Positions 2 through 56,633 of a DNA stretch of 62,811 nt are shown piece by piece (the first letter of the stretch is position 1; each line of letters starts with the position of its first letter). The notes under the pieces were generated by a model. It saw nothing but the letters and a program-made list of their open reading frames with translations, was not told where the DNA came from and made no database searches. The stretch is from a virus. Lineage: Duplodnaviria; Caudoviricetes. The position numbers and the translations under genes were made by a program. The stretch spans positions 1 to 62,811 of the IMG/VR virus record IMGVR_UViG_3300038393_002510; one strand, 5' to 3'.

Positions 2-382
2 GCGGTTCACCCAGACGTAGCGGTCGGTGTTGGTGAGCTTGGTCTCGGACCCGCCCGGCTTCAGCTTCGGGAAGGCGATGTGCCGTTCCTTCAGGAGCCC
101 CTTGGGGTTGGCCGTGACCAGGACGCCGATGGTCTCGCCGTGCAGCGTCAGCTTCCAGAAGCGCGGCCCGATCGGCAGGTTCTCGGCCTTGTAGTGCAGG
201 TCGTGCAGGAGCTCCCAGTCCGCCTTGGACCCGCGCTCCACGAACATCTCGTCGATGAGCGAAAAACGGGGCGCTGGCTGGGCGCAGCGCTCGATCAGTG
301 TCTCGGGCGCTTGATACGCGCGGACGCTGCCAGGGAGCTCCCCAGCGCAATCCGCGGGCTGTTCCTGCACAGGGGCGCGCAT
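2..382 (-). CDS. Mom-like GNAT-fold acetyltransferase associated with an ABC ATPase (3' end outside window)
   Basis: Hand-translated, not in the ORF track: MRAPVQ...GSKADWELLHDLHYKAENLPIGPRFWKLTLHGETIGVLV.... The W..L..LHY followed by a beta-strand ending in IG resembles ABC-associated/Mom-like GNATs. ATG at 382 overlaps the HAD stop. Confidence 0.6.
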   Translation of the reverse strand, partial: MRAPVQEQPADCAGELPGSVRAYQAPETLIERCAQPAPRFSLIDEMFVERGSKADWELLHDLHYKAENLPIGPRFWKLTLHGETIGVLVTANPKGLLKERHIAFPKLKPGGSETKLTNTDRYVWVNR

Positions 383-843
383 CAGTAATCGCCCTCGCAC
401 ACCTGGAGGCAGCGCACCCCGTTCTCACGAAACATCTTTGTTACGCTCGCCCGGTCCTCGACGGCGAACAGGATCTCGTAGCCGAGGTCACGGATGTGCT
501 CGAGGACCTCCTTCTTGACCACGGTGTCGGGCCGGCGATCGCCCGCGGGCCGCATGAACAGGCCGTTGAAGCGGATGCCGTTCTGGCGGAGCCAGTGGCT
601 CGTGTTCGTGCGGTCGGTCTCCGGCCGCCCAGTGACCATGAACACGGTCGTGACCGCGTGCATGGCGTTGTTGAGGGTCTTGATCTCGTCGTTGACGGTG
701 TCGAGGTGCGACCGGTCGAAGAACGCCTGCCAGGCCGGGCCGACCTCGTGGGACGGCGTGCCGTCGCGCGGGATCAGGTGGACCCGGTGCTCGGCGTTCG
801 CGAGGGTTCCATCTATATCCATCAAGACACAGGTCAGACGCAT
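382..843 (-). CDS. HAD-family phosphatase (T4 PseT/PNKP 3'-phosphatase-like)
   Basis: DIDGTLA, VTGRPE, MRPAGDRRPD..K and VEDR motifs. Confidence 0.9.
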   Translation of the reverse strand: MRLTCVLMDIDGTLANAEHRVHLIPRDGTPSHEVGPAWQAFFDRSHLDTVNDEIKTLNNAMHAVTTVFMVTGRPETDRTNTSHWLRQNGIRFNGLFMRPAGDRRPDTVVKKEVLEHIRDLGYEILFAVEDRASVTKMFRENGVRCLQVCEGDY

Positions 844-941
844 CAGTGCGCTCCCAAGCTCTGCACGACCAGGAGCGCGACGATGATCGCGGCCCCGAGG
901 GCGAGCCCCAGGAGCGCTTCCTTCGGGCTGCGCGGGCTCAT
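843..941 (-). CDS. small membrane peptide (32 aa)
   Basis: MSPRSPKEALLGLALGAAIIVALLVVQSLGAH; start and stop are coupled to neighbouring genes. Confidence 0.5.
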   Translation of the reverse strand: MSPRSPKEALLGLALGAAIIVALLVVQSLGAH

Positions 942-1213
942 AGGGCGTTTCCGGTGCGCGGGGTGGTCCAGCGGGTCACGATCGGGCAGCTCGAGCCGGA
1001 GGCGCCCGTGATGAGCACTCGGCGGATCGGCTCGTCGAGGTCCTCGAAGCGCAGGTCCTCGAGCACGATGGCGCCGATCGACAGCGTCATGATCGCGGAG
1101 CGGGCCGACGCCTTGACCGTGAGCTGGTCGACGCTGGTCTCGACGAAGTGGGTGCCCTGGGCCTGCACGCTGGTGTGCGGCCCGCGCGGGCGGATGAGCA
1201 GGACGCAGGTCAC
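938..1213 (-). CDS. hypothetical protein
   Basis: GTGA overlap with the upstream stop at 1210-1213; fills the operon. Confidence 0.55.
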   Translation of the reverse strand: MTCVLLIRPRGPHTSVQAQGTHFVETSVDQLTVKASARSAIMTLSIGAIVLEDLRFEDLDEPIRRVLITGASGSSCPIVTRWTTPRTGNAL

Positions 1214-1473
1214 GACACGATCTCCCAGTCGGAGGCCAGGAGGTCGGTCTGCGAGCACAGCCACGGCACGACCTGGCCGTCGGCGGTCTTCATGTCGACG
1301 TGGGCGTGGTAGCGGATCTCCGTGCCCTCGGGGTAGATCCCGAGCAGCGGCGGCCGGTTGACCTTGAAGGTCGAGCCGTTGACCAGGAAGAGGAACATCC
1401 CCTTGCCGTTCCAGCCGGCGCGGGCCACGCGCTTGCCGGCCTTCATCGCCTCGACGGCTTCCCCGATGTTCAT
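1210..1473 (-). CDS. tad2: DUF2829 / Tad2-family anti-defence nucleotide sponge
   Basis: GEAVEAMKAGKRVARAGWNGKGMFL...PWLCSQTDLLASDW matches the DUF2829 signature. Confidence 0.85.
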   Translation of the reverse strand: MNIGEAVEAMKAGKRVARAGWNGKGMFLFLVNGSTFKVNRPPLLGIYPEGTEIRYHAHVDMKTADGQVVPWLCSQTDLLASDWEIVS

Positions 1474-2111
1474 GCTGCTGCCTTTTCGATGTCGACCCGC
1501 TCGCGGAAGCGCTTGGTCAGGGTGAGGGAGGGGGCGAGTTCGGCCGTCAGGTCGGTGTGGGTCGTGGCGACCATCAGCGTCCGGCCCTGCCGGCGCGCGA
1601 CCTTCTGGCTATTGAAGGCGACGACCTTCGCCGTGACCCGGTCGAGCACGGCGCCGAACTCGTCGGCGATCCACACGTCGGCCCCGGACTCGAGGACCTT
1701 TGCGAGCTTCAGGCGGTAGCGCTGGCCGTCGGACAGCTCCGACGGCTTGCGGATGTAGATCCAGGCGTCCGAGATGCCGGCGAGCGCCAGGAGGTGCGTC
1801 GCGTCGGTCATGGAGGTGCCGACCTGCTCGATCACCGGGCGGTCATCGAGGACGATCTCGTTGAGGTCGGCGACCTTGAGGCCACCGGCGCGCATCTGGG
1901 CGGCGAGCTCCTTCAGGAGCAGCGACTTGCCCGAGCCCGACTGGCCGGTGATGTAGACGACGTCGCCGGCGGCCACGTCGACCTGGAGCCCGTCGTAGAT
2001 GACGAACTCCTTGTCGGAGAGGCCCAGGCCGAAGCCCTCGGCGACCTCGAGCACGCGCGGGGTGCGCTCCACCGACGAGGTGAAGCTCTTGGAGATGGTG
2101 TAGGTGGTCAC
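1470..2111 (-). CDS. soluble ABC-family ATPase (phage GNAT-associated type)
   Basis: Walker A GQSGSGKS, signature LSDGQRYR, Walker B WIADEF, H-loop TTH; no permease nearby. Confidence 0.9.
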   Translation of the reverse strand: MTTYTISKSFTSSVERTPRVLEVAEGFGLGLSDKEFVIYDGLQVDVAAGDVVYITGQSGSGKSLLLKELAAQMRAGGLKVADLNEIVLDDRPVIEQVGTSMTDATHLLALAGISDAWIYIRKPSELSDGQRYRLKLAKVLESGADVWIADEFGAVLDRVTAKVVAFNSQKVARRQGRTLMVATTHTDLTAELAPSLTLTKRFRERVDIEKAAA

Positions 2112-2596
2112 GCGCCGTCCTCCGGGTCCAGGTCCGGGTCCTCGGCGTCCATGTCGATGTAGACGGGCGCGTCGGTTGCCTCGAAGGCGGCCGCCGTCGG
2201 CGAGCCGATGCGTGAGAGCACCTCGACCTTGCCTTCGCAGAGGTCGGTGAGGTTCCGCTCCAGGACCTTGAGCGAGCCGAGCATCCGGGCGGCGCCGTCG
2301 GCGACCGAGAGCCCGATGGGCAGCGAGACGTGCGCCTCGAAGACCTTGTCGGCCTCGTTCCAGGTGATCGCCGCGATGCCGCGGGTGAGGCCTTCCTCGA
2401 AGTCCTCGACGAGGCCGGTGACGACCTTCAGGCTCTCGGTGTCGACCGTGCCCTCGGGCAGCTCCTCGGTCTCAGCCTCCTCGGGCGGCGGCTCGTAGGG
2501 CGCCCGGGTGAAGATGTGGAACACCTTCGGGGCGTCCGGGTCGGCCGACACCTCGGTGAAATACTTCTTGCGCAGGTCGTTGAGGGCATCGCTCAT
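2108..2596 (-). CDS. acidic hypothetical protein
   Basis: Coupled ORF with normal codon usage. Confidence 0.7.
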   Translation of the reverse strand: MSDALNDLRKKYFTEVSADPDAPKVFHIFTRAPYEPPPEEAETEELPEGTVDTESLKVVTGLVEDFEEGLTRGIAAITWNEADKVFEAHVSLPIGLSVADGAARMLGSLKVLERNLTDLCEGKVEVLSRIGSPTAAAFEATDAPVYIDMDAEDPDLDPEDGA

Positions 2597-2619
2597 GGGT
2601 GTGTCAGTCCTGACTTACC

Positions 2620-3303
2620 TCAGATGCCGAACTCGGTGAGGAAGCCCATGAAGGCCTCCGCGCCCTTCTTGCCGGTCTCGGCCTCGATCCGGGCCATGAA
2701 CGCCTTCACGCGCCGGCCGTCGGCGACCGACAGCTTGGAGAAGCCGAACACCTCGCCGAGCCGGGCCGGCGCGTCGTCCACGGCCGCGGCCTTGGCGGCG
2801 TTCTCGGTCTGCTGCTCCTGGACGGCCTCGCCGATGTCATCGACGAACGCCTCGTCCAGCATCTCGCCCGGGTCCTCGACCATGAAGTCGAGCTCCCGCT
2901 CGTCGAAGCCGAGGCTGCTCATCTCGATGCCGCCATCCTCGGCGAGCGCCGCGAGGCCCTGGCGCAGCAGGTCGGTGTCGACGTCGGTGTTGACCGCCTG
3001 GTTGTCGGAGAGCCGCAGCGCGTCGGCCTCGGCATCGGTGAGCCCCTTGAGCACGACGACCGGCACGGTGAGCATTCCCAGCTCGATCGCCGCCAGACGC
3101 CGGCCGTGGCCGTTGATGATCTCCTTGGTCTCGCCGCGCACGACGATCGGGTTCGTCCAGACGCCCCGGGCGCGGATGACGCCGGCGAGCTTCTTGGTCG
3201 TGGCCGGCGAGTGCTTCTTGGCGTTCTTGGCGTAGGGGACCAGGTCCGCGACCGGCCAGTGCTCCACGACCAGCTTCGAGAGGTCGATCTTAGGCGTCGT
3301 CAC
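2620..3303 (-). CDS. ParB/Srx N-terminal domain protein
   Basis: LVPYAKNAKKH, PIVV, IINGHGRRLAA, LSDN. Confidence 0.9.
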   Translation of the reverse strand: MTTPKIDLSKLVVEHWPVADLVPYAKNAKKHSPATTKKLAGVIRARGVWTNPIVVRGETKEIINGHGRRLAAIELGMLTVPVVVLKGLTDAEADALRLSDNQAVNTDVDTDLLRQGLAALAEDGGIEMSSLGFDERELDFMVEDPGEMLDEAFVDDIGEAVQEQQTENAAKAAAVDDAPARLGEVFGFSKLSVADGRRVKAFMARIEAETGKKGAEAFMGFLTEFGI

Positions 3304-3481
3304 GGGTCCACTCCCTCAGCATGCCGTAGAGGGCCGCCTCGCTGGGCTCCTCGTCGTCGATCTTGGGGTCGAAATTCTCCCCGGCCTTGCAGCCGAGGCA
3401 GGCCCGCACGAGCCGCGTCACGTCGCAGTGAGTGCATTCCCGGCACTCCGGGAAGCGCGGCTCGATGCGGATGCCGGTCAC
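3290..3481 (-). CDS. small Cys-rich protein
   Basis: CRECTHC...CLGC; overlaps both ParB-like genes. Confidence 0.6.
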   Translation of the reverse strand: MTGIRIEPRFPECRECTHCDVTRLVRACLGCKAGENFDPKIDDEEPSEAALYGMLREWTRDDA

Positions 3482-4206
3482 AGCGGCTCTCCGAAGGCAT
3501 CGTCTTCGGGGACGTCACCCTCGGAGCCTTCCTCCTCGGCGCCGGGCACGGGTGGCACGGCGGCGCCGAGGAGGAGGAAGCAGAGCGCGTCGCCCGCGTT
3601 CATCAGGGCGGTGCCGGCGTCAAAACCCTGGCGCTTGGCCGTGCGGGTGATGAGGTCGGTCAGGCGCTCCGCGTCGGCCAGCGGCACCTGAAAGCGCATC
3701 ATGGCGTGCGTCTTCGGGGCGGTGGCGACCGGGGTCTCGTGTTCCGTTGCGGTTTCGGACTCGGTCTCGTCTAAATCCAAGTCCTCCAGCGCTATAGTCG
3801 AAGACGAGAAGATCGACGTGAGCTCCTCGTCCGTGAAAGGCATGGTCTCCTGAAAGCCCTCGACGTCTCCCAGGCTCTTGAGCAGCAGCGCCAGCTCGCT
3901 GGCGTCGTCCTGCCCGTAGCGGGTGTTGTCGATCAGGCCGATCTTCTTGGCCTCGTCCTCGTCGATCGGGCCGAAGTTCAGCACCGGGACCAGGGGAAGA
4001 CCGAGATCGGTCGCGACCTTCCAGCGATGCTCGCCGCCCAGGATCTCCAGGCCGGTGTCGGTCTCGCGCACCAGGATCGGGCGCACGATGCCGCGCTGCC
4101 GGATGGAGGCGGTGAGCTTGGCCTCGTTGTCCGGCGCGACGTGGTTGGAGTTCCACGGGTTCGGCCGGAGCTCGGACGGCGCGATCTGGAGTGACTTGGG
4201 ATGCAT
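3478..4206 (-). CDS. ParB/Srx N-terminal domain protein
   Basis: LRPNPWNSN, PILVRE, ILGGEHRWKVA, DNTRYG. Confidence 0.9.
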   Translation of the reverse strand: MHPKSLQIAPSELRPNPWNSNHVAPDNEAKLTASIRQRGIVRPILVRETDTGLEILGGEHRWKVATDLGLPLVPVLNFGPIDEDEAKKIGLIDNTRYGQDDASELALLLKSLGDVEGFQETMPFTDEELTSIFSSSTIALEDLDLDETESETATEHETPVATAPKTHAMMRFQVPLADAERLTDLITRTAKRQGFDAGTALMNAGDALCFLLLGAAVPPVPGAEEEGSEGDVPEDDAFGEPL

Positions 4207-4270
4207 GGGAGGATGTGGTAAGTCAGCGCTTACTGACTTGTCAACGCCTCACAGGAGGAAAAAATCAGCC

Positions 4271-5962
4271 GTGACTGACCTGGTGCAGATGGCCGTGGGC
4301 GTCGTGAACGCCCAGCTCGTGAACCCGTCGAAGGCGGTGAAGGCGCTCGCCCACAAGACCCTGTCCTACGTGGTCGAGGGCGCCGAGTTCTCGGGCGCCG
4401 GCAACGGCCAGTGGAACGGCCGCTCCTCGTTCTTCTCGAACCTCAAGCACACCTTCCCCGCGGGCTTCGCGCACCTGCTGCACGCGGAGCTGACCCGGGC
4501 CGGCCACAAGGTCCACCTGGTCAAGAAGCCCCTGCCGGAGCCGCTCGGCCCCGAGGACCCACAGGTGGACGCCTTCGGGAACGACAATCCCGACTACGAC
4601 TACCAGATGCGCACGATCCGGCAGCTCCTCCGGCACGGGCGCGGCATCGCGCAGGTGGCCACCGGTGGAGGAAAGTCGAAAATTTCCAAGCTCGCGGTCG
4701 CGCGCATCCGCCGGCCGACCCTGTTCATCACCACCCGCGGCGTGCTCATGCACCAGATGGCCGACGGCTTCCGGGAGGCCGGCTTCAAGGTCGGGCTGAT
4801 CGGCGACGGCGAGTGGAGCCCGGTGCGCGGCGTCAACTGCGCGATGGTGCAGACGCTGGTCGCCCGGCTCGAGGAGACCGACGTCTCCAAGGAGCTCATC
4901 AAGGGCGTCGAGCGGCGCGCGGCCGCCGAGGAGAAGGCCCGGACCCAGCTCAAGGCGCGGATGAAGCGTGACGGCGCCAAGCCCCGGGACATCGCGCTGG
5001 CGCTCGACAAGCTGGAGAGCAACCAGATCGCGGCCCGGCCGAGCGACGAGGAGATGGCGAAGGAGGCGTCCGCCCGCGCGGTCCAGCAGATGACGCTGCG
5101 GGCGCGCACCATCAAGTTCCTGGAGATGATCGAGCTGGTGATCGGCGAGGAGGCGCACGAGGTCGGCGGCACCAGCTACTTCGAGATCATGCGCCACTGC
5201 CGGAACGCCCACTACCGCCTGGCGCTGACCGCGACCCCGTTCATGCGCGCCGACGCCGCCGACAACATGCGCCTGATGGCCGCCTTCGGCCCCATCCTGA
5301 TCCAGGTCACGGAGAAGGAGCTGATCGACAAGGGCATCCTGGCGAAGCCCTACTTCCGGTTCGTCGACACCCCGACGCCGAAGGGCCTGTTCAAGTCGAC
5401 GCCCTACCAGCGCGCCTACACGATGGGCTACGTCAACAACGTCGTGATGCACCAGGCGATCGTGGCCGAGGCCAAGAAGGCGGCCTCGCTCGGTCAGCCG
5501 GTGATGACCCTGATCCAGCGCACCGCCCACGGCGACATCCTGGTCGAGCTGATGCGCAAGGCGGGCCTGCGCGTCGTGTTCCTGAAGGGCGAGGACGACC
5601 AGAAGGCCCGCAAGCGCGCCCTCGACCAGCTCGCTCGGGGCGAGATCGACGTGCTGATCGGCACGACCATCCTCGACGTCGGCGTGGACGTGCCGGCCGT
5701 GGGTCTCGTGCAGCTCGCCGGCGGCGGCAAGGCGGAAGTCGCGCTCCGGCAGCGGATCGGCCGCGGCGCTCGGCGCAAGAAGACCGGGCCGAACATCTTC
5801 TTCGTCTCGGACTACACCACCGGCCCGAACTCGCACCTGCAGGGCCACGCCCGCGAGCGCCGGGCGATCATCGAGGGCACCGACGGCTTCCGGGAGGGCA
5901 TCCTGAAGGCCGGGGCCGACCACCCCTGGCACCTCGTTTCGGCGACGAAGCGCGCAGCCTGA
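4271..5962 (+). CDS. superfamily 2 (UvsW/ResIII-like) helicase
   Basis: YQ Q-motif, ATGGGKS, GEEAHE, LTATP, DVGVDVP, QRIGRGAR. GTG start at 4271 after AGGAGG. Confidence 0.9.
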   Translation: MTDLVQMAVGVVNAQLVNPSKAVKALAHKTLSYVVEGAEFSGAGNGQWNGRSSFFSNLKHTFPAGFAHLLHAELTRAGHKVHLVKKPLPEPLGPEDPQVDAFGNDNPDYDYQMRTIRQLLRHGRGIAQVATGGGKSKISKLAVARIRRPTLFITTRGVLMHQMADGFREAGFKVGLIGDGEWSPVRGVNCAMVQTLVARLEETDVSKELIKGVERRAAAEEKARTQLKARMKRDGAKPRDIALALDKLESNQIAARPSDEEMAKEASARAVQQMTLRARTIKFLEMIELVIGEEAHEVGGTSYFEIMRHCRNAHYRLALTATPFMRADAADNMRLMAAFGPILIQVTEKELIDKGILAKPYFRFVDTPTPKGLFKSTPYQRAYTMGYVNNVVMHQAIVAEAKKAASLGQPVMTLIQRTAHGDILVELMRKAGLRVVFLKGEDDQKARKRALDQLARGEIDVLIGTTILDVGVDVPAVGLVQLAGGGKAEVALRQRIGRGARRKKTGPNIFFVSDYTTGPNSHLQGHARERRAIIEGTDGFREGILKAGADHPWHLVSATKRAA

Positions 5963-8138: not shown

Positions 8139-8251
8139 CTGTCTAACTCGCTTCTGTGTTGCTGACGATTACTTGTCGCACGCCCCCGACAGGGGGTCAA
8201 GTCACCGGTGACTTATCAACAGCGTGCGAGAAAATCGCATTAGCGCGTCGG

Positions 8252-8316
8252 TGAGACGCTTCGCGCGTCTCAGAGCTAGATCTGCTCACTGAGACGCTTC
8301 GCGCGTCTCAGTGAGC
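8252..8316 (-). terminator. two tandem hairpins downstream of the GG/CC-free gene
   Basis: TGAGACGC-TTCGC-GCGTCTCA (8252-8272) and a 14-bp perfect stem GCTCACTGAGACGC/GCGTCTCAGTGAGC (8284-8316); both are GG/CC-free. Confidence 0.7.
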
Positions 8317-8327
8317 TTGCTAGACGC

Positions 8328-8948
8328 TTAGAGCGCGACGCTCAGAGCTTTAGCTAGACGCTTCGTCGTTGCAGCGCTCAGATTGAGCGAATATGCAACT
8401 TCATTGCGTTCATCGCGCGTTTCTTTGAGAACGTCGAACATTTGCAGCGCGTTAATGCTGCTAGAGCTTTGCGTGTCAGCAGTATTCGCTGCAACAGTCT
8501 TAGCATAGCGCACGATATGTTGAGCTTTTGCAGCGTCAGCGCGCAGATCAACACACAGCGACGCTTGTGCATCTTTGTGCGTCATCGTCATGTTAGCTTT
8601 CGTGAGCTTAAGAGCAGTCAAGAAAATGCAGCGCGTGTAATTGTTGAGCGTATCAGCAGCAGCAGCAGAGCGCGCAATGTTAGCGACTTTCTGAGCGCTA
8701 TAGACGTTGAAGCGCTTGTTGCGACGCTCTTGACGATTGATAAAGTTAGCGTCGACGTTTGCGCTGTGCATAACTTTAACGACAGCTTCGTGAGAGAAAT
8801 CAATCGCGAGATTGTCGAGAGTCTTTTGAATGTTCGTGTTCTCAGCGTTGCACTCAATCTCATAAGACTTGCGAGCAGCGATCGACGTCTGAAGAGCGAC
8901 GCTGTAGTTCGCGACAGCTTCGTTCTGAGCGTTGTTGAGCTTCGTCAT
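8328..8948 (-). CDS. GG/CC-free gene; 206-aa putative winged-helix protein lacking Gly, Pro and Trp; paralog of 10253-11194
   Basis: ATG at 8948 (MTKLNNAQ...). Aligns with 10253-11194 (NIQKTL/NIHKTL, VDANFINR/VDPSFINR, FNVYSAQKVA/YNVYAVDKVA, TQSSS/TQASS, TKRL). Confidence 0.85.
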   Translation of the reverse strand: MTKLNNAQNEAVANYSVALQTSIAARKSYEIECNAENTNIQKTLDNLAIDFSHEAVVKVMHSANVDANFINRQERRNKRFNVYSAQKVANIARSAAAADTLNNYTRCIFLTALKLTKANMTMTHKDAQASLCVDLRADAAKAQHIVRYAKTVAANTADTQSSSSINALQMFDVLKETRDERNEVAYSLNLSAATTKRLAKALSVAL

Positions 8949-9249
8949 GACTGTGTCTCTCTGTGTGTGTGTTGCTGACGATTGAGAGAATACAGAGTCG
9001 GCAGATCGGCTCAAGAGCACAAAGCGAGAACAGAGCGAAAAAGTCAGCGGGAGGTGATTATTTTTGATGGGACGCACTTTCTCGTGCGGAGTGCGGAAAT
9101 GCCACTCGACGGGCGAGCGGAACTCCGTGGAGCCAGGATGGATTGTGCGCAATCGAATTGGGCACAACTCGATTGGGGTCAATTCAATTGGGGTCGATCG
9201 AATCACGCCCGATGGGCTCGGGCTCGATCGAGTCGTGCCCGACGCTTCC

Positions 9250-17818: not shown

Positions 17819-17867
17819 CGAAATCTCCTCTTCCAAGTCAGTGCTGACTGACAATTATTGTTTTAGA

Positions 17868-18146
17868 TCAAGCGCTTAGGGCTGTCGGTAGGGACAGTGA
17901 GGCGCGTGCGAGGGCGTCGCTGTAGCGGTTCAACCGCTGCACCCGGCGGCCGATCTCCTCCTCCATCCAGTCGTCGTAGAGGTGGGTGAGGTGATCGCAG
18001 ACGCTCTTGGCGATGCTGCTGTAGGTCATGGGCTGCCAGCCCGGGCCGGCGCAGCCGATGCACTCCAACTTGCCGCTCGGCTTCATGGGCGCGAGCAGCT
18101 CGGCGTGTTCGTGGCAGCCGCAGGCGCCGCAGGGGATCGTCGCCAT
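17868..18146 (-). CDS. Cys-containing hypothetical protein
   Basis: CGAC...CIGC. Confidence 0.65.
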   Translation of the reverse strand: MATIPCGACGCHEHAELLAPMKPSGKLECIGCAGPGWQPMTYSSIAKSVCDHLTHLYDDWMEEEIGRRVQRLNRYSDALARASLSLPTALSA

Positions 18147-25561: not shown

Positions 25562-25819
25562 CCGCCCTCTCCTTCTCTCGCTCGCTGAGTAAGTCAGCGC
25601 TGACTGATTATAGCGAAGCGCGCTCGGGTTTGACGAAGCGCCCTGCCTGATCGTCAGAAGGTGGCTGGGATCGCGTGCGCGCGTCGCTGAGACGCTTCAG
25701 CTTGCGCGCGCTGTCTGCGTCGCTCGCGCGCGTGCCGAGTCTGTGTGAGCGTCTGAGCGCATTCTAGCAGCGCGGCACTCGATCGCGCGAGCGTGCGCTG
25801 TCTGCAAGCGTTCATGCGG

Positions 25820-39774: not shown

Positions 39775-40220
39775 GGGCTTCTCGAAAAAGGAGGGGTCGA
39801 GGGGCGAACCAGGACCCCTCCGGGTGTTTCTCTTATCAGTCAGTGCTGACTGACTTTCTCGTTATAGCGCGCGACGCTCGGGTTTTCGCGTGGGTTGCAC
39901 CGGTATCTCGTCGAACGGATAGGCGTGACCACGCCGAGGGGTGCTGAGGCGTTCAGAAGGCAGAGTTACCAATTTCGAATTAGGCTGAGCGCATAAACGG
40001 AGCATATTGGTATGTTAAGCGTCCCTCGATCGGGATAATATACAGAATTTGACTAAGACGCTTGATTTTTATCCTCACCTTCATGACCATGGAAGGGTGA
40101 GAGCTCGCAGCCGCGACTGAGTCGCCCGTAGCCGCAGCTACTCTTCAATGGGCTCAATCTTGGAGTAGCCCAACGAGAACGATCCTGGTCATCGCTTTCC
40201 AATTAGAAGAGGGACAGAAA

Positions 40221-40805
40221 ATGCGTGCCTATGCCTCTATTTCGCTTCTTGTAGTTATGTGGGCATTTCCAGCTCTGGCGGATTCACGACAATGCACTGT
40301 AGCCAAAGACAAAGGTAATGCTGCGGCATCAGAATATTATGACCCTCGCATAAAACAAGTTGATGATGCAATCCGGGATATAAAGGATAAGGGCGGCAAT
40401 CCAGATGATATCGCCATCAGGGTGGGCGACAAGTTTCTTACATTCCCCGAGATACGCGCCAAACTAGCCAAGGATAAACAGATTGCGCTCGCGGCAGTGA
40501 CTACGCAGATAGATGAGTGCGAAAAAGGGATGAAACCTTATCAAGATTTAGTGAACGAATATGCAAACTTAGCTACAGGTGGAGTATTAAAAATGCTGCC
40601 GGGGAAGATGGGGTTCATCGACGTCTCTGATATCCTTGCTGGTTATCCACTCGGTGGGCCTGATGCCTTCGTGCCAAAGGCCCGCGAGCAGATCCTAAAA
40701 GCTTTAGGAATGGGAGGGAAAAATAACACTGCTGGAAAAATTTTTAGAGATCCGATCAAAGAGGGTATCATTCGACCGATACAATGTATTTTCGGTTGTA
40801 AATAA
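40221..40805 (+). CDS. low-GC accessory (moron) secreted protein
   Basis: Signal peptide ending ALA; AT-rich codons; own AT-rich upstream region; opposite strand to its neighbours. Confidence 0.8.
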   Translation: MRAYASISLLVVMWAFPALADSRQCTVAKDKGNAAASEYYDPRIKQVDDAIRDIKDKGGNPDDIAIRVGDKFLTFPEIRAKLAKDKQIALAAVTTQIDECEKGMKPYQDLVNEYANLATGGVLKMLPGKMGFIDVSDILAGYPLGGPDAFVPKAREQILKALGMGGKNNTAGKIFRDPIKEGIIRPIQCIFGCK

Positions 40806-40809
40806 ATGA

Positions 40810-40840
40810 GAAAACCCCGCAAGCGGAGCTCGCGGGGCTC
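40810..40840. terminator. hairpin between the moron and RNR
   Basis: CCCCGC...GCGGGG stem. Confidence 0.5.
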
Positions 40841-41034
40841 TCGATGTCGGGTGTCTTCCCAGCACCATCAGGCGTTTAGGCGACCGATATCTTCACACCG
40901 CGCGTGGCGATGATCTCGGCGAGCCGGTCGATGTCGACCGGGATCCCCGATGCTGGCGTTGAACGTGGCCAGCTGGATGAAGGGGCGCACCCACCAGCGA
41001 AGGTGGATGCGGACCCGGACGTGCTGCGTCGCCA

Positions 41035-45388: not shown

Positions 45389-45413
45389 CTCCAGCCTGTG
45401 AGTAAGCGCTGAC

Positions 45414-45632
45414 TTATTGTGTATAGCGAACGAAGCTCGGTCTTTCGCACCGCTTGATGTCGGCCATCGTGTTCTGGAGCGTGCGATGATCGGACGGGGT
45501 CGCGGCCGAGATCACCACGGCGCCGGTCGCCGCGTAGAGCCACTTGAAGTGGCCCTTCTTGGTGCGCTCGACGACCCAGCCCTCCTTGCACTTCTTCCGC
45601 ACGAAGGCCTTCATGTCTCCCTTGAGGCTCAT
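45414..45632 (-). CDS. HicA-like small protein
   Basis: GWVVERTKKGHFKW...TPSD.R. Confidence 0.6.
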   Translation of the reverse strand: MSLKGDMKAFVRKKCKEGWVVERTKKGHFKWLYAATGAVVISAATPSDHRTLQNTMADIKRCERPSFVRYTQ

Positions 45633-50407: not shown

Positions 50408-50489
50408 GTCTCTCTCTGTGCGTGGTGTCAGTCAGTGCTGACTGACTCGTTATAGCGAGCGCGCGTCGGGTTTTGCGCGGGTTCGTGCG

Positions 50490-56541: not shown

Positions 56542-56633
56542 TCGTGCCTCACGTAAGTAAGTGCTGACTGATCTCTTATAGCGAGCGCATGTCGGGTTTT
56601 GTGAGGGACCGGCCGGGAATTTCGCATTCCCGG

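Follow-up and report, generated by a model that had tools for sequence, protein, structure and literature searches.

The phage operon described here encodes, as two genes, an ABC-type ATPase and a GNAT-fold protein that sequence comparison shows to be the N-terminal half and its GNAT counterpart in a split version of a widespread fused ABC-GNAT protein. Across tailed viruses that infect bacteria or archaea, the ABC-GNAT enzyme is a conserved companion of terminase genes. The split identity and the adjacency to the terminase large subunit (TerL) in three virus groups are the new results of this analysis. We favour, with a probability of about 0.35, the reading that the enzyme is an ATP-powered acyltransferase whose target around the time of packaging is phage DNA or something bound to it.

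Organization and conservation of the operon

The window, the whole stretch of 62,811 nucleotides that was analysed, is an entire IMG/VR contig. The operon spans positions 2–4206 on the minus strand and is tightly packed, with neighbouring genes abutting or overlapping, for example by 4 nt. The gene order is ParB1, a five-cysteine peptide, ParB2, an acidic protein, the ABC ATPase, a Tad2-like protein, a HAD phosphatase and the GNAT protein, whose ORF runs into the contig end. The original prediction had listed two ParB proteins, a Cys-rich peptide, a permease-less ABC ATPase, a HAD phosphatase and a GNAT-like ORF with an LHY motif, and all of these were found in place on the minus strand; the Tad2-like gene and the acidic ORF had been missed or left unnamed. 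ParB1 diverges from a UvsW-like helicase gene (4322–5962, plus strand), and the intergenic region between them (4207–4321) is, from the gene coordinates, presumed to be the promoter region of the operon. A consensus scan placed a sigma-70-like site on the plus strand of this region (4238–4265) and called no sigma-70-type promoter on the minus strand of the operon. The only terminator-like match on the operon strand lies inside the GNAT ORF (290–271), and such matches show no excess over shuffled sequences (2 found, 1.7 expected).

Conservation was counted across 27 related IMG/VR loci, with tblastn used for small ORFs. The ABC ATPase is present in all 27, ParB2 in 26 and ParB1 in 25, both misses being loci truncated at contig ends. 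From Rhizobium phages to SSU5, the four genes ParB1, ParB2, ABC and GNAT keep this order, with protein identities of 37–56%. Synteny within this phage lineage is inherited, so the 27 loci do not amount to 27 independent observations.

A split ABC-GNAT enzyme

The ABC-type ATPase (1470–2111, minus strand, 213 aa; PF00005, E 5.8e-13, 50.1 bits) is soluble, and the operon contains no membrane partner for it. Walker A (GQSGSGKS), the signature (LSDGQ), Walker B (VWIADE) and the H-loop (TTH) are invariant among 21 sequences, which shows, at the level of motifs, a catalytically competent ATPase. Over 93–99% of its length it is 45–60% identical to proteins of ~480 aa that carry an N-terminal ABC and a C-terminal GNAT domain. 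The annotation of these proteins reads 'ABC-type ATPase with predicted acetyltransferase domain', and we take them to be COG2401. In P0043, one of these proteins, the GNAT part is homologous to the phage GNAT profile (hhalign probability 98.2%, E 3e-14), and the 133-aa GNAT fragment in the window matches the C-terminal portion of such fusions at 63 of 80 cellular loci (phmmer). The phage gene order, ABC followed by GNAT, equals the domain order in the fusions. Both forms share a W..L..(F/L)HY(R/K) motif as well as GNAT motifs A and B, and both adjoin TerL. They differ in that the phage form consists of two genes separated by a variable slot (Tad2, HAD), is preceded by two ParB genes and the Cys-rich peptide, and diverges in the region past the GNAT core. 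Sequence searches returned no solved structure for the fused family, and a literature search returned nothing on its function.

The GNAT ORF in the window (2–400, minus strand) carries the motif LHDLHYKAE and matches positions 8–107 of the 295 in phrog_886 (E 2.4e-35). The ORF is present as predicted but incomplete: it covers the N-terminal 133 residues of a ~300–314-aa protein, the C-terminal ~180 of which lie past the contig end; a full-length orthologue, 89% identical, is found at L004:8013-8954. Pfam GNAT models score 15 bits on the phage protein, below the cut-off of 23.6. The GNAT fold, as originally predicted, is shown by motifs that are invariant in 22 orthologues and, at the level of a predicted structure, by an AlphaFold model (pLDDT 77.1) with the GNAT order of strands and helices. 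The best 50 VIA-align matches of this model are all GNAT proteins (Z 8.6–10.6), Foldseek returned GNAT proteins only, and the named neighbours in the ESM Atlas are GNAT clusters.

Relation to Mom and the GG/CC-free island

Phage Mu Mom modifies DNA and carries the annotation 'DNA modification'. The original prediction was that the GNAT protein is Mom-like. Spelled out as an explanation, this would make it a homologue of Mom, with carbamoylmethylation of adenine or a similar Mom-type adduct as its product, in a GG/CC-related context. The two proteins have the GNAT-superfamily fold in common, and Mom is likewise a late-phase phage enzyme. The Mom structure 8bv8_B is found by Foldseek (E 2e-3) and ranks twelfth in VIA-align (Z 9.7, rmsd 3.6 over 141 residues). 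It is one of about 50 GNAT neighbours that are tied, dozens of them ordinary acetyltransferases, and eleven GNATs that are as close or closer precede it, so that Mom is structurally no nearer than they are. There is no detectable sequence relation: the family profile aligned to Mu Mom with an hhalign probability of 0.2%, and the Pfam Mom family PF25680 gave no match at E<=1. Membership in the Mom family is therefore largely refuted, and only the superfamily is shared. To our knowledge, Mom needs neither an ABC ATPase nor a ParB partner, which further sets it apart from the phage operon. No com-like gene was noticed in the window, short of a dedicated search for one.

The GG/CC-free island, which on the original proposal would reveal the target of the operon, is real. 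At 8251–9000, GG/CC is absent from 750 bp at a GC content of 0.51, where ~73–75 occurrences per 600-bp window would be expected. The island occurs in four of the five whole genomes with the operon, these four being from related phage lineages and thus not independent cases; SSU5 has the operon without the island. In view of SSU5 and the missing sequence relation, we regard the Mom-homologue explanation as highly improbable, even with the shared fold and the genuine island in its favour.

Terminase linkage in three virus groups

The ABC-GNAT pair adjoins TerL in its own siphophage lineage, in Bathyarchaeia (pro)viruses and in Bacillota prophages. In the phage lineage, a same-strand TerL gene begins at most 2.5 kb downstream in 24/24 loci with enough sequence. 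Of 78 Bathyarchaeia and other archaeal loci, 50 have TerL of the Terminase_6N family (E 2.5e-18) immediately upstream and in the same orientation; only 51 of the 78 have at least 3 kb of upstream sequence. The same arrangement is seen in 43 of 75 IMG/VR loci with the fused form. Both Bacillota prophage loci examined show the order ABC-GNAT, Amidoligase_2 (E 1.6e-47 and 8.8e-60), small ORF, TerL, portal. Modification of DNA late or at packaging, as originally proposed for the operon, would fit the TerL adjacency in the three groups. Against this stands the fact that a gene beside a terminase may be an accessory with any function.

TerL is the only partner gene common to all three groups. A ParB gene near the archaeal and Bacillota ABC-GNAT genes was detected as one weak match in 80 cellular loci and in 0 of 80 viral loci. 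The enzyme thus generally needs no ParB, and ParB in the phage operon may be a mere neighbour.

The ParB proteins

ParB1 (3478–4206, minus strand, 242 aa) has a ParB/Srx N-terminal domain (PF02195, E 2.4e-12, 47.2 bits with the cut-off at 26.3; phrog_723, E 1.6e-57) and matches ParB/Spo0J/Noc entries in the PDB by sequence (E 2e-9 to 1e-5). ParB2 (2620–3303, minus strand, 227 aa) is a ParB/Srx-type protein of a methyltransferase-associated subtype: it matches phrog_930 (E 6e-63) and the Spo0J structure 1vz0 (E 1e-6), scores 24.0 bits against PF02195, under the same cut-off, and has the motifs GHGRR and NAKKH, which do not vary among 21 sequences. Both proteins match the N-terminal part of phrog_498 ('DNA methyltransferase'; E 5e-20 for ParB1, 1e-31 for ParB2) and PADLOC MTase_II (E 3e-10 and 5.7e-21), ParB2 aligning to positions 9–149 of 436. 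By these profile matches, the pair belongs to the subtype seen fused to DNA methyltransferases. Unlike the proteins in such fusions, the phage ParBs have no methyltransferase domain, stand alone, come in two copies and precede ABC-GNAT. The suggestion that they do something other than partitioning is plausible, given this match and a ParA-type gene at ~26.0–26.4 kb in the window, ~22 kb off the operon rather than beside ParB1 or ParB2. Between the two ParB genes, the Cys-rich peptide (3290–3481, minus strand, 63 aa, five Cys, CxxC..CxxC-like) has no family match in Pfam, PHROG, NCBIfam or PADLOC; it occupies this place in 14 of the 27 related loci (tblastn) and is possibly a zinc ribbon.

It is unlikely, in our estimate, that the two ParBs and ABC-GNAT sit side by side with unconnected functions. 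On that reading, the ParBs would serve replication, segregation or an anti-host role as nucleases, NTPases or DNA-binding factors, and ABC-GNAT would be an independent accessory, for example one that counters defence by acetylating a defence protein, a polyamine or a small-molecule signal. The ParB-free archaeal and Bacillota (pro)viruses agree with such a separation, as do the known or likely counter-defence genes in the ABC/GNAT slot (Tad2, PNKP-type phosphatase) and structural matches that include the viral polyamine acetyltransferase 3qb8 and insect polyamine/agmatine acetyltransferases. Against it stand the four-gene order shared by Rhizobium phages and SSU5, the close packing of the ParB genes, which overlap or adjoin the ABC operon and are separated from it by neither promoter nor terminator, and an in-frame ParB2-ABC fusion (P0042). 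Moreover, an anti-defence accessory would be unlikely to stay by TerL across bacterial and archaeal viruses.

The acyl acceptor

If the enzyme is an acyltransferase on DNA, the two ParB-type proteins would load onto phage DNA late in infection, the ABC dimer would close and open with ATP and so offer substrate to the GNAT active site, and the GNAT would move an acyl group from acyl-CoA to the DNA just before or during packaging; a DNA-bound protein could serve as the acceptor instead. DNA as the target is favoured by the methyltransferase-fusion type of the ParB modules and by the P0042 fusion. Against it, neither the ABC nor the GNAT part yielded a DNA-binding element, and the annotation of RHEph10 lists ordinary nucleotide metabolism but none of the known genes for hypermodification.

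The closest structural neighbours of the GNAT model are tied (IAA acetyltransferase, RimI and NatA, Z 10.3–10.6) and are mostly small-molecule and protein N-acetyltransferases, so the fold itself does not indicate DNA. The same split enzyme might instead acylate a protein. Its target could belong to the virion or the packaging machinery (terminase, portal, an internal or DNA-bound protein, perhaps the ParBs), or could be a protein of the host or of a defence system, and the ABC dimer would then be an ATP-driven clamp or unfoldase-like presenter. Most of the characterised GNATs among the tied top matches act on proteins or small amines (RimI 5isv, NatA 6c95 and 4kvm, Ard1, HP0935), TerL adjacency suits a virion or packaging protein equally with DNA, and the next gene in the Bacillota prophages is Amidoligase_2, a family reportedly proposed to act in peptide-type modifications. 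We consider a protein substrate slightly less probable than the favoured reading: no target protein was identified, the three virus groups have no conserved partner in common beyond TerL, and the ParB modules indicate DNA rather than protein.

Known systems offer partial parallels to the favoured DNA acyltransferase. The tRNA(Met) cytidine acetyltransferase TmcA and NAT10 are ATPase-coupled GNATs that acetylate cytidine in RNA. Like the phage enzyme, they combine a GNAT domain with a P-loop ATPase, in their case to act on a nucleic-acid base, but their ATPase is helicase-type rather than ABC and their substrate is RNA. Both are among the Foldseek matches of the GNAT model (TmcA 2zpa_A, E 4.9e-4; NAT10 9aym_A, E 1.8e-3), with alignments at rmsd ~14 Å that confine the likeness to the GNAT part. 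In the Dnd system, a DNA-modifying enzyme is accompanied by DndB, which is of the ParB superfamily, and by the ABC ATPase DndD (PMC10853773). In contrast to acyl transfer, Dnd inserts sulfur (phosphorothioation), and it is a cellular defence system rather than a phage packaging module. GNAT domains are also proposed as DNA modifiers in BREX-related systems (PMC12839542).

Accessory genes of the variable slot

The slot between the ABC and GNAT genes is variable, and its HAD phosphatase and Tad2-like genes are not core. The HAD phosphatase, of polynucleotide kinase-phosphatase (PNKP) type (382–843, minus strand, 153 aa; PF25109, E 4.7e-28, 98.5 bits; phrog_415, E 5e-41), had been counted as an operon member; it is present here, yet occupies the slot in only 3 of the 27 loci. 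The acidic protein (2108–2596, minus strand, 162 aa, 22% Asp+Glu) has no family match in Pfam, PHROG, NCBIfam or PADLOC, gives a tblastn match in just 4 of 27 loci and is missing in SSU5, which marks it as a poorly conserved gene that fills the space separating ParB2 from the ABC ATPase. The Tad2-like (DUF2829) protein (1210–1473, minus strand, 87 aa; PF11195, E 2e-27, 96 bits) is found in the slot in 3 of the 27 loci and additionally in RHph_X66 and RHEph10, and is probably an anti-defence sponge. Together with the HAD phosphatase, it probably represents unrelated accessory functions in anti-defence and RNA repair, respectively.

A compact operon with a variable slot between two enzyme genes

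Eight closely packed ORFs run on the minus strand from 4206 to 2, with 4-nt overlaps at several genes. In this order they encode a ParB/Srx-domain protein, ParB1 (3478-4206), a 63-aa peptide with five cysteines (3290-3481), a second ParB protein, ParB2 (2620-3303), an acidic protein of 162 aa (2108-2596), an ABC ATPase of 213 aa (1470-2111), a Tad2-like/DUF2829 protein (1210-1473), a PNKP-type HAD phosphatase (382-843) and a truncated GNAT ORF that runs off the contig (2-400). The ParB proteins, the Cys-rich peptide, the ABC ATPase, the HAD phosphatase and the GNAT ORF are all present as the original prediction had listed them; the gene at 1210-1473 had been overlooked. Its product is a predicted Tad2-like anti-defence protein (Thoeris anti-defence 2-like, PF11195, 96 bits against a cut-off of 25). 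Neither the GNAT nor the acidic protein nor the Cys-rich peptide has a match in NCBIfam or PADLOC. Transcription of a UvsW-like helicase gene and a dNMP kinase gene runs divergently from the operon. Promoter calling gave no sigma-70-type site on the strand of the operon, and the single terminator-like match on that strand is within shuffle expectation.

The window is one complete viral contig in IMG/VR (62,811 bp, linear class), for which CheckV estimates a completeness of about 56%. It is related to large siphophages of 103-122 kb, namely the Rhizobium phages RHEph10 and RHph_X66, Pseudomonas phage nickie, Stenotrophomonas and Xanthomonas phages, and SSU5-type phage-plasmids. Across 27 related IMG/VR loci together with RHph_X66, RHEph10 and SSU5, the conserved order is helicase (divergent), ParB1, (Cys-rich peptide), ParB2, (acidic protein), ABC ATPase, a variable slot, and GNAT. 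Among the 27 IMG/VR loci, the ABC ATPase is present in 27, ParB2 in 26 and ParB1 in 25, the ParB1 misses being loci cut by contig ends. The Cys-rich peptide was found in 14 of these loci and the acidic protein in four. The Tad2-like protein and the HAD phosphatase occur in only three each, and we therefore regard them as guests in the variable slot between the enzyme halves rather than as parts of the machine. Because RHEph10 also encodes an RtcB-type RNA ligase, the PNKP-type phosphatase may belong to an RNA-repair set.

The GNAT half resembles Mom at superfamily level only

The GNAT fold is a mixed β-sheet with the order β1-α1-α2-β2-β3-β4-α3-β5-α4-β6-β7, and its motif A (R/Q-x-x-G-x-G/A), located at the β4-α3 turn, binds the pyrophosphate of CoA. 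A 314-aa orthologue on another contig (L004:8013-8954) is 89% identical to the GNAT fragment of the window. Across 22 orthologues, LH.LHYKAE, a motif A of the form DTMYRG.G..YR and the motif-B-like EIQSSMSKFN.F..AGF are invariant. The AlphaFold model of the full-length reference orthologue, P0001 (pLDDT 77.1, pTM 0.62), follows the GNAT order of strands and helices from residue 46 and carries a helical insert (189-273) before the last strand. Motif A lies between strand 129-137 and helix 143-158 of the model; R142-G143-x-G145 is invariant in the 22 orthologues, and residue 147, a glycine in P0001, is variable. In an all-against-representatives comparison with VIA-align, all 50 matches listed are GNAT proteins (Z 8.6-10.6). 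Foldseek returned GNATs with probabilities of 0.9-1.0, and the named neighbours in the ESM Atlas are GNAT clusters.

By sequence, Pfam GNAT models stay under their gathering scores for P0001 (Acetyltransf_10, 15.0 bits versus 23.6, E 0.024; Acetyltransf_7, 12.5 bits versus 27). Querying solved structures by sequence with the GNAT profile gave no real match, the best being an annexin at E 1. We conclude from model and motifs that the last ORF encodes a truncated, predicted GNAT-fold acyltransferase. The full-length protein is matched by phrog_886 (E 3e-119), which PHROG labels 'ABC transporter ATP-binding subunit'. This label misleads: the protein lacks a P-loop and represents the GNAT half. 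Genes filed under the label are the GNAT half as well, which corrects a widespread mis-annotation.

The original prediction had described the ORF as a Mom-like GNAT, and only the fold survives comparison. Mu Mom itself matches PF25680 at E 2.4e-75; the same model gave no match to P0001 at E<=1, and hhalign of the GNAT family profile (A1) against Mu Mom returned a probability of 0.2%, ruling out membership of the Mom family. The Mom structure 8bv8_B does appear among the VIA-align matches (Z 9.7, rmsd 3.6, 141 residues), but at rank 12: eleven unrelated GNATs outrank it at Z 9.8-10.6, all within 1 Z. Foldseek placed 8bv8 17th. These ranks rule out a closer structural kinship to Mom than to other GNATs. 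The resemblance between the phage GNAT and Mom, as judged from profiles and the model, is confined to the superfamily level, and a true Mom-type enzyme, for which the shared fold would speak, is very improbable.

The ABC ATPase and the GNAT as a split form of a fused family

The ABC ATPase scores 50.1 bits against PF00005 (cut-off 25) and has a complete set of catalytic motifs: GQSGSGKS (Walker A), LSDGQ (signature), VWIADE (Walker B) and TTH (H-loop) do not vary across 21 sequences. Its sequence is similar to those of transporter-type nucleotide-binding domains, and its NCBIfam and PADLOC matches are generic ABC models only (mad3, mad8). No membrane permease partner or domain was found in the operon or its conserved neighbourhood, so that it does not qualify as part of an ABC transporter, the annotation that the gene carries in relatives.

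We looked for longer proteins related to the ATPase and retrieved 500 at E<=1e-10. Those that match best are about 470-500 aa long, share 45-60% identity over 93-99% of the query and combine Pfam ABC_tran and GNAT domains; their source names are 'ABC-type ATPase with predicted acetyltransferase domain' or 'GNAT family N-acetyltransferase'. The ABC domain is N-terminal and the GNAT domain follows, which is the order of the two phage genes. The GNAT domains of these fused proteins do show matches to PF00583, PF13673 or PF13508. With hhalign, the phage GNAT profile aligned to residues 232-371 of one fused protein at a probability of 98.2% (E 3e-14), and in 63 of 80 cellular loci the GNAT fragment of the window matches the fused protein within its C-terminal part. 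When proteins of 551-2000 aa were searched with P0001 for longer forms, none matched at E<=0.001; the fusions are shorter (about 480 aa) and came to light through the ABC half instead.

Both halves are thus homologous to the fused proteins; in the window they are two genes, 1.07 kb apart, with the Tad2-like and HAD genes between them. On this homology, the ABC ATPase and the GNAT represent a split form of the fused ABC-GNAT family, and are predicted to be two halves of one enzyme. One fused protein of the phage type, P0040 (471 aa), is 60% identical to the ATPase of the window. It is filed under the moss Sphagnum compactum and probably derives from a phage or bacterial contig within that assembly.

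As far as we found, the fused family is catalogued and its function is uncharacterised in the literature searched. In the main texts covered, a set apart from Krishnan et al. 2020 and Iyer et al. 2009, we found no description of the split form, of its association with ParB proteins or of its link to the terminase; the former reportedly deals with ABC ATPases, the latter is said to concern amidoligases, and both may bear on ABC-GNAT. The module is not mentioned in excerpts of the literature on Nickievirus phages, Bathyarchaeia viruses and Clostridium prophages.

Gene order ties ABC-GNAT to the terminase

Downstream of the phage GNAT lie genes for a small winged-helix protein, a 227-aa DNA-binding protein (phrog_867) that is probably the small terminase, the large terminase TerL, and the portal. 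In all 24 phage-lineage loci with enough sequence, TerL starts no more than 2.5 kb downstream on the same strand.

Scanning one genome per species brought up 570 stretches with relatives of ABC-GNAT, and IMG/VR yielded 581. The best 80 of the 570 are almost all from Bathyarchaeia. In 50 of 78 loci of this type, the gene immediately preceding ABC-GNAT on its strand encodes TerL, and only 51 of the 78 have at least 3 kb of upstream sequence; the archaeal TerL assignment rests on Terminase_6N (E 2.5e-18) and Terminase_6C. Tail-type genes are found farther upstream, and nothing is conserved downstream. Among the 80 of 581 IMG/VR loci examined for the fused form, TerL lies immediately upstream in 43 of the 75 with enough upstream sequence. 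In many IMG/VR loci (for example L127, L128, L135 and L138-L143), the fused gene lies a few hundred bases from the end of the viral contig or provirus, and seems to be the final viral gene, following TerL. Two Bacillota prophages have the order ABC-GNAT, Amidoligase_2, small ORF, TerL and SPP1-type portal, with Amidoligase_2 (PF12224) at L042:9528-10418 (E 1.6e-47) and L123:8516-9379 (E 8.8e-60).

In three virus groups, then, gene order links the split or fused ABC-GNAT to the terminase. A catalogued family without known function regularly accompanies the terminase in tailed viruses that are very distant from one another.

The ParB proteins of the phage lineage

ParB1 has a ParB/Srx N-terminal domain (PF02195, 47.2 bits). 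ParB2 falls just below the cut-off of the same model (24.0 bits), matches phrog_930 (E 6e-63) and Spo0J (E 1e-6), and has an invariant GHGRR motif. Both proteins have the ParB N-terminal fold, whose superfamily hallmark is the GxxR box, and both resemble the module found at the N-terminus of ParB-methyltransferase fusions (phrog_498; PADLOC MTase_II). Neither has the adjacent ParA expected of a partition ParB (ParABS): the only ParA-type gene found in the window is at about 26.0-26.4 kb, roughly 22 kb away, and in RHEph10 and RHph_X66 ParA lies beyond the helicase, on the opposite side from the operon.

The ParB pair and the enzyme pair could be functionally separate, the enzyme then serving an accessory or anti-defence function. 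Beside fused ABC-GNAT forms, no ParB gene was found in cellular or IMG/VR loci, bar one weak match: a Bathyarchaeia ABC-GNAT of 647 aa (L093:1448-3391) is extended at its N-terminus by about 180 aa with a weak likeness to ParB1 (phmmer E 2e-4) that Pfam does not confirm. One complex prediction for the ABC ATPase (A4) and ParB2 (A3) returned no answer, at scores of 0.01 and 0.05, and speaks neither for nor against their binding. Against a functional separation stand the conserved gene order of the phage lineage and P0042, the one case of an in-frame ParB2-ABC fusion, and we consider a functional separation rather unlikely. A second apparent fusion, P0041, looks like a frameshifted read-through and was set aside.

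Candidate substrates and a possible mechanism

We propose that an ABC dimer would spend ATP presenting a polymer substrate to the GNAT, which would acylate it around the time of packaging. The substrate of the split enzyme may be DNA, a reading to which we give a probability of roughly one in three. TmcA and NAT10 are ATPase-coupled GNATs that acetylate a nucleic-acid base, and both are among the Foldseek matches of the P0001 model. The Dpd system brings together a ParB protein, an ATPase and a DNA-modifying enzyme. A further precedent for this combination acting on DNA is Dnd, according to an excerpt of its description (PMC10853773). That the presented polymer is a protein instead is nearly as probable. 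Hypermodification pathway genes were not seen in the RHEph10 annotation, a point against a DNA target. If DNA is the target, the enzyme would represent a novel, ATP-driven chemistry of DNA modification; a protein target would add a new step to virion assembly or to host takeover. Since cultured phages such as RHEph10 carry the enzyme, they offer a concrete and cheap experimental entry to the acylation target.

A conserved GG/CC-free island

Positions 8251-9000 of the window contain no GG or CC across 750 bp at a GC content of 0.51, against a window average of 0.181 per position; the longest free run of any other dinucleotide pair is at most 237 bp. The island holds a minus-strand ORF (8328-8948) encoding 206 aa without Gly, Pro or Trp. 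Its product has no clear family, DUF6387 matching at E 0.008 only. When the protein was re-encoded with the codon usage of the operon, GG/CC occurred 88.5 times on average and at least 67 times in 2000 draws, and paralogues in the same genomes are not depleted of GG/CC. Other genomes have one island each: 549+424+159 bp in RHEph10, 799 bp in genome G007 and 1072 bp in the nickie-like genome G006, the last without a homologue of the 206-aa protein. The complete lack of GG/CC, the re-encoding result and the recurrence in relatives show that the island is a real and conserved feature.

Operon and island occur together in four of five whole genomes, those four being related lineages; SSU5 has the operon and no island. 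Near fused ABC-GNAT genes, none of 160 loci has a 500-bp window at an observed/expected ratio of 0.1 or less, a weak negative because flanks of equal size recover the island in only one of 27 phage-lineage loci.

In its most specific form, the DNA reading would make ABC-GNAT a new DNA 'writer', an ATP-dependent acyltransferase acting at the hand-over to the terminase in bacterial and archaeal tailed viruses. It would acylate a base, one candidate site being the exocyclic amine of a C or G within GG/CC steps, and the island would be a stretch kept unmodified. Taken jointly, these proposals are a long shot. In phage T5, the region that enters first and is expressed early avoids nuclease target sites. 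By analogy, the island may alternatively be a first-entering, early-expressed region of this kind.

On the 3' side of the island gene, 8252-8311 contains two exact copies, 38 bp apart, of a 22-nt repeat that includes a palindrome, TGAGACGCTTCGCGCGTCTCAG; the pair may be an operator or terminator-like element. Elsewhere, a second region of low GC (39901-40900; minimum 0.45 against a window average of 0.67) is not free of GG/CC. Six short GG/CC-free stretches of 44-57 bp (17833-17879, 25571-25626, 39823-39880, 45395-45439, 50424-50468 and 56547-56594) share the motif (C/G)AGT(C/A)AGTGCTGACTGA... followed by TTATAGCG or a variant, and look like a repeated phage promoter or operator.
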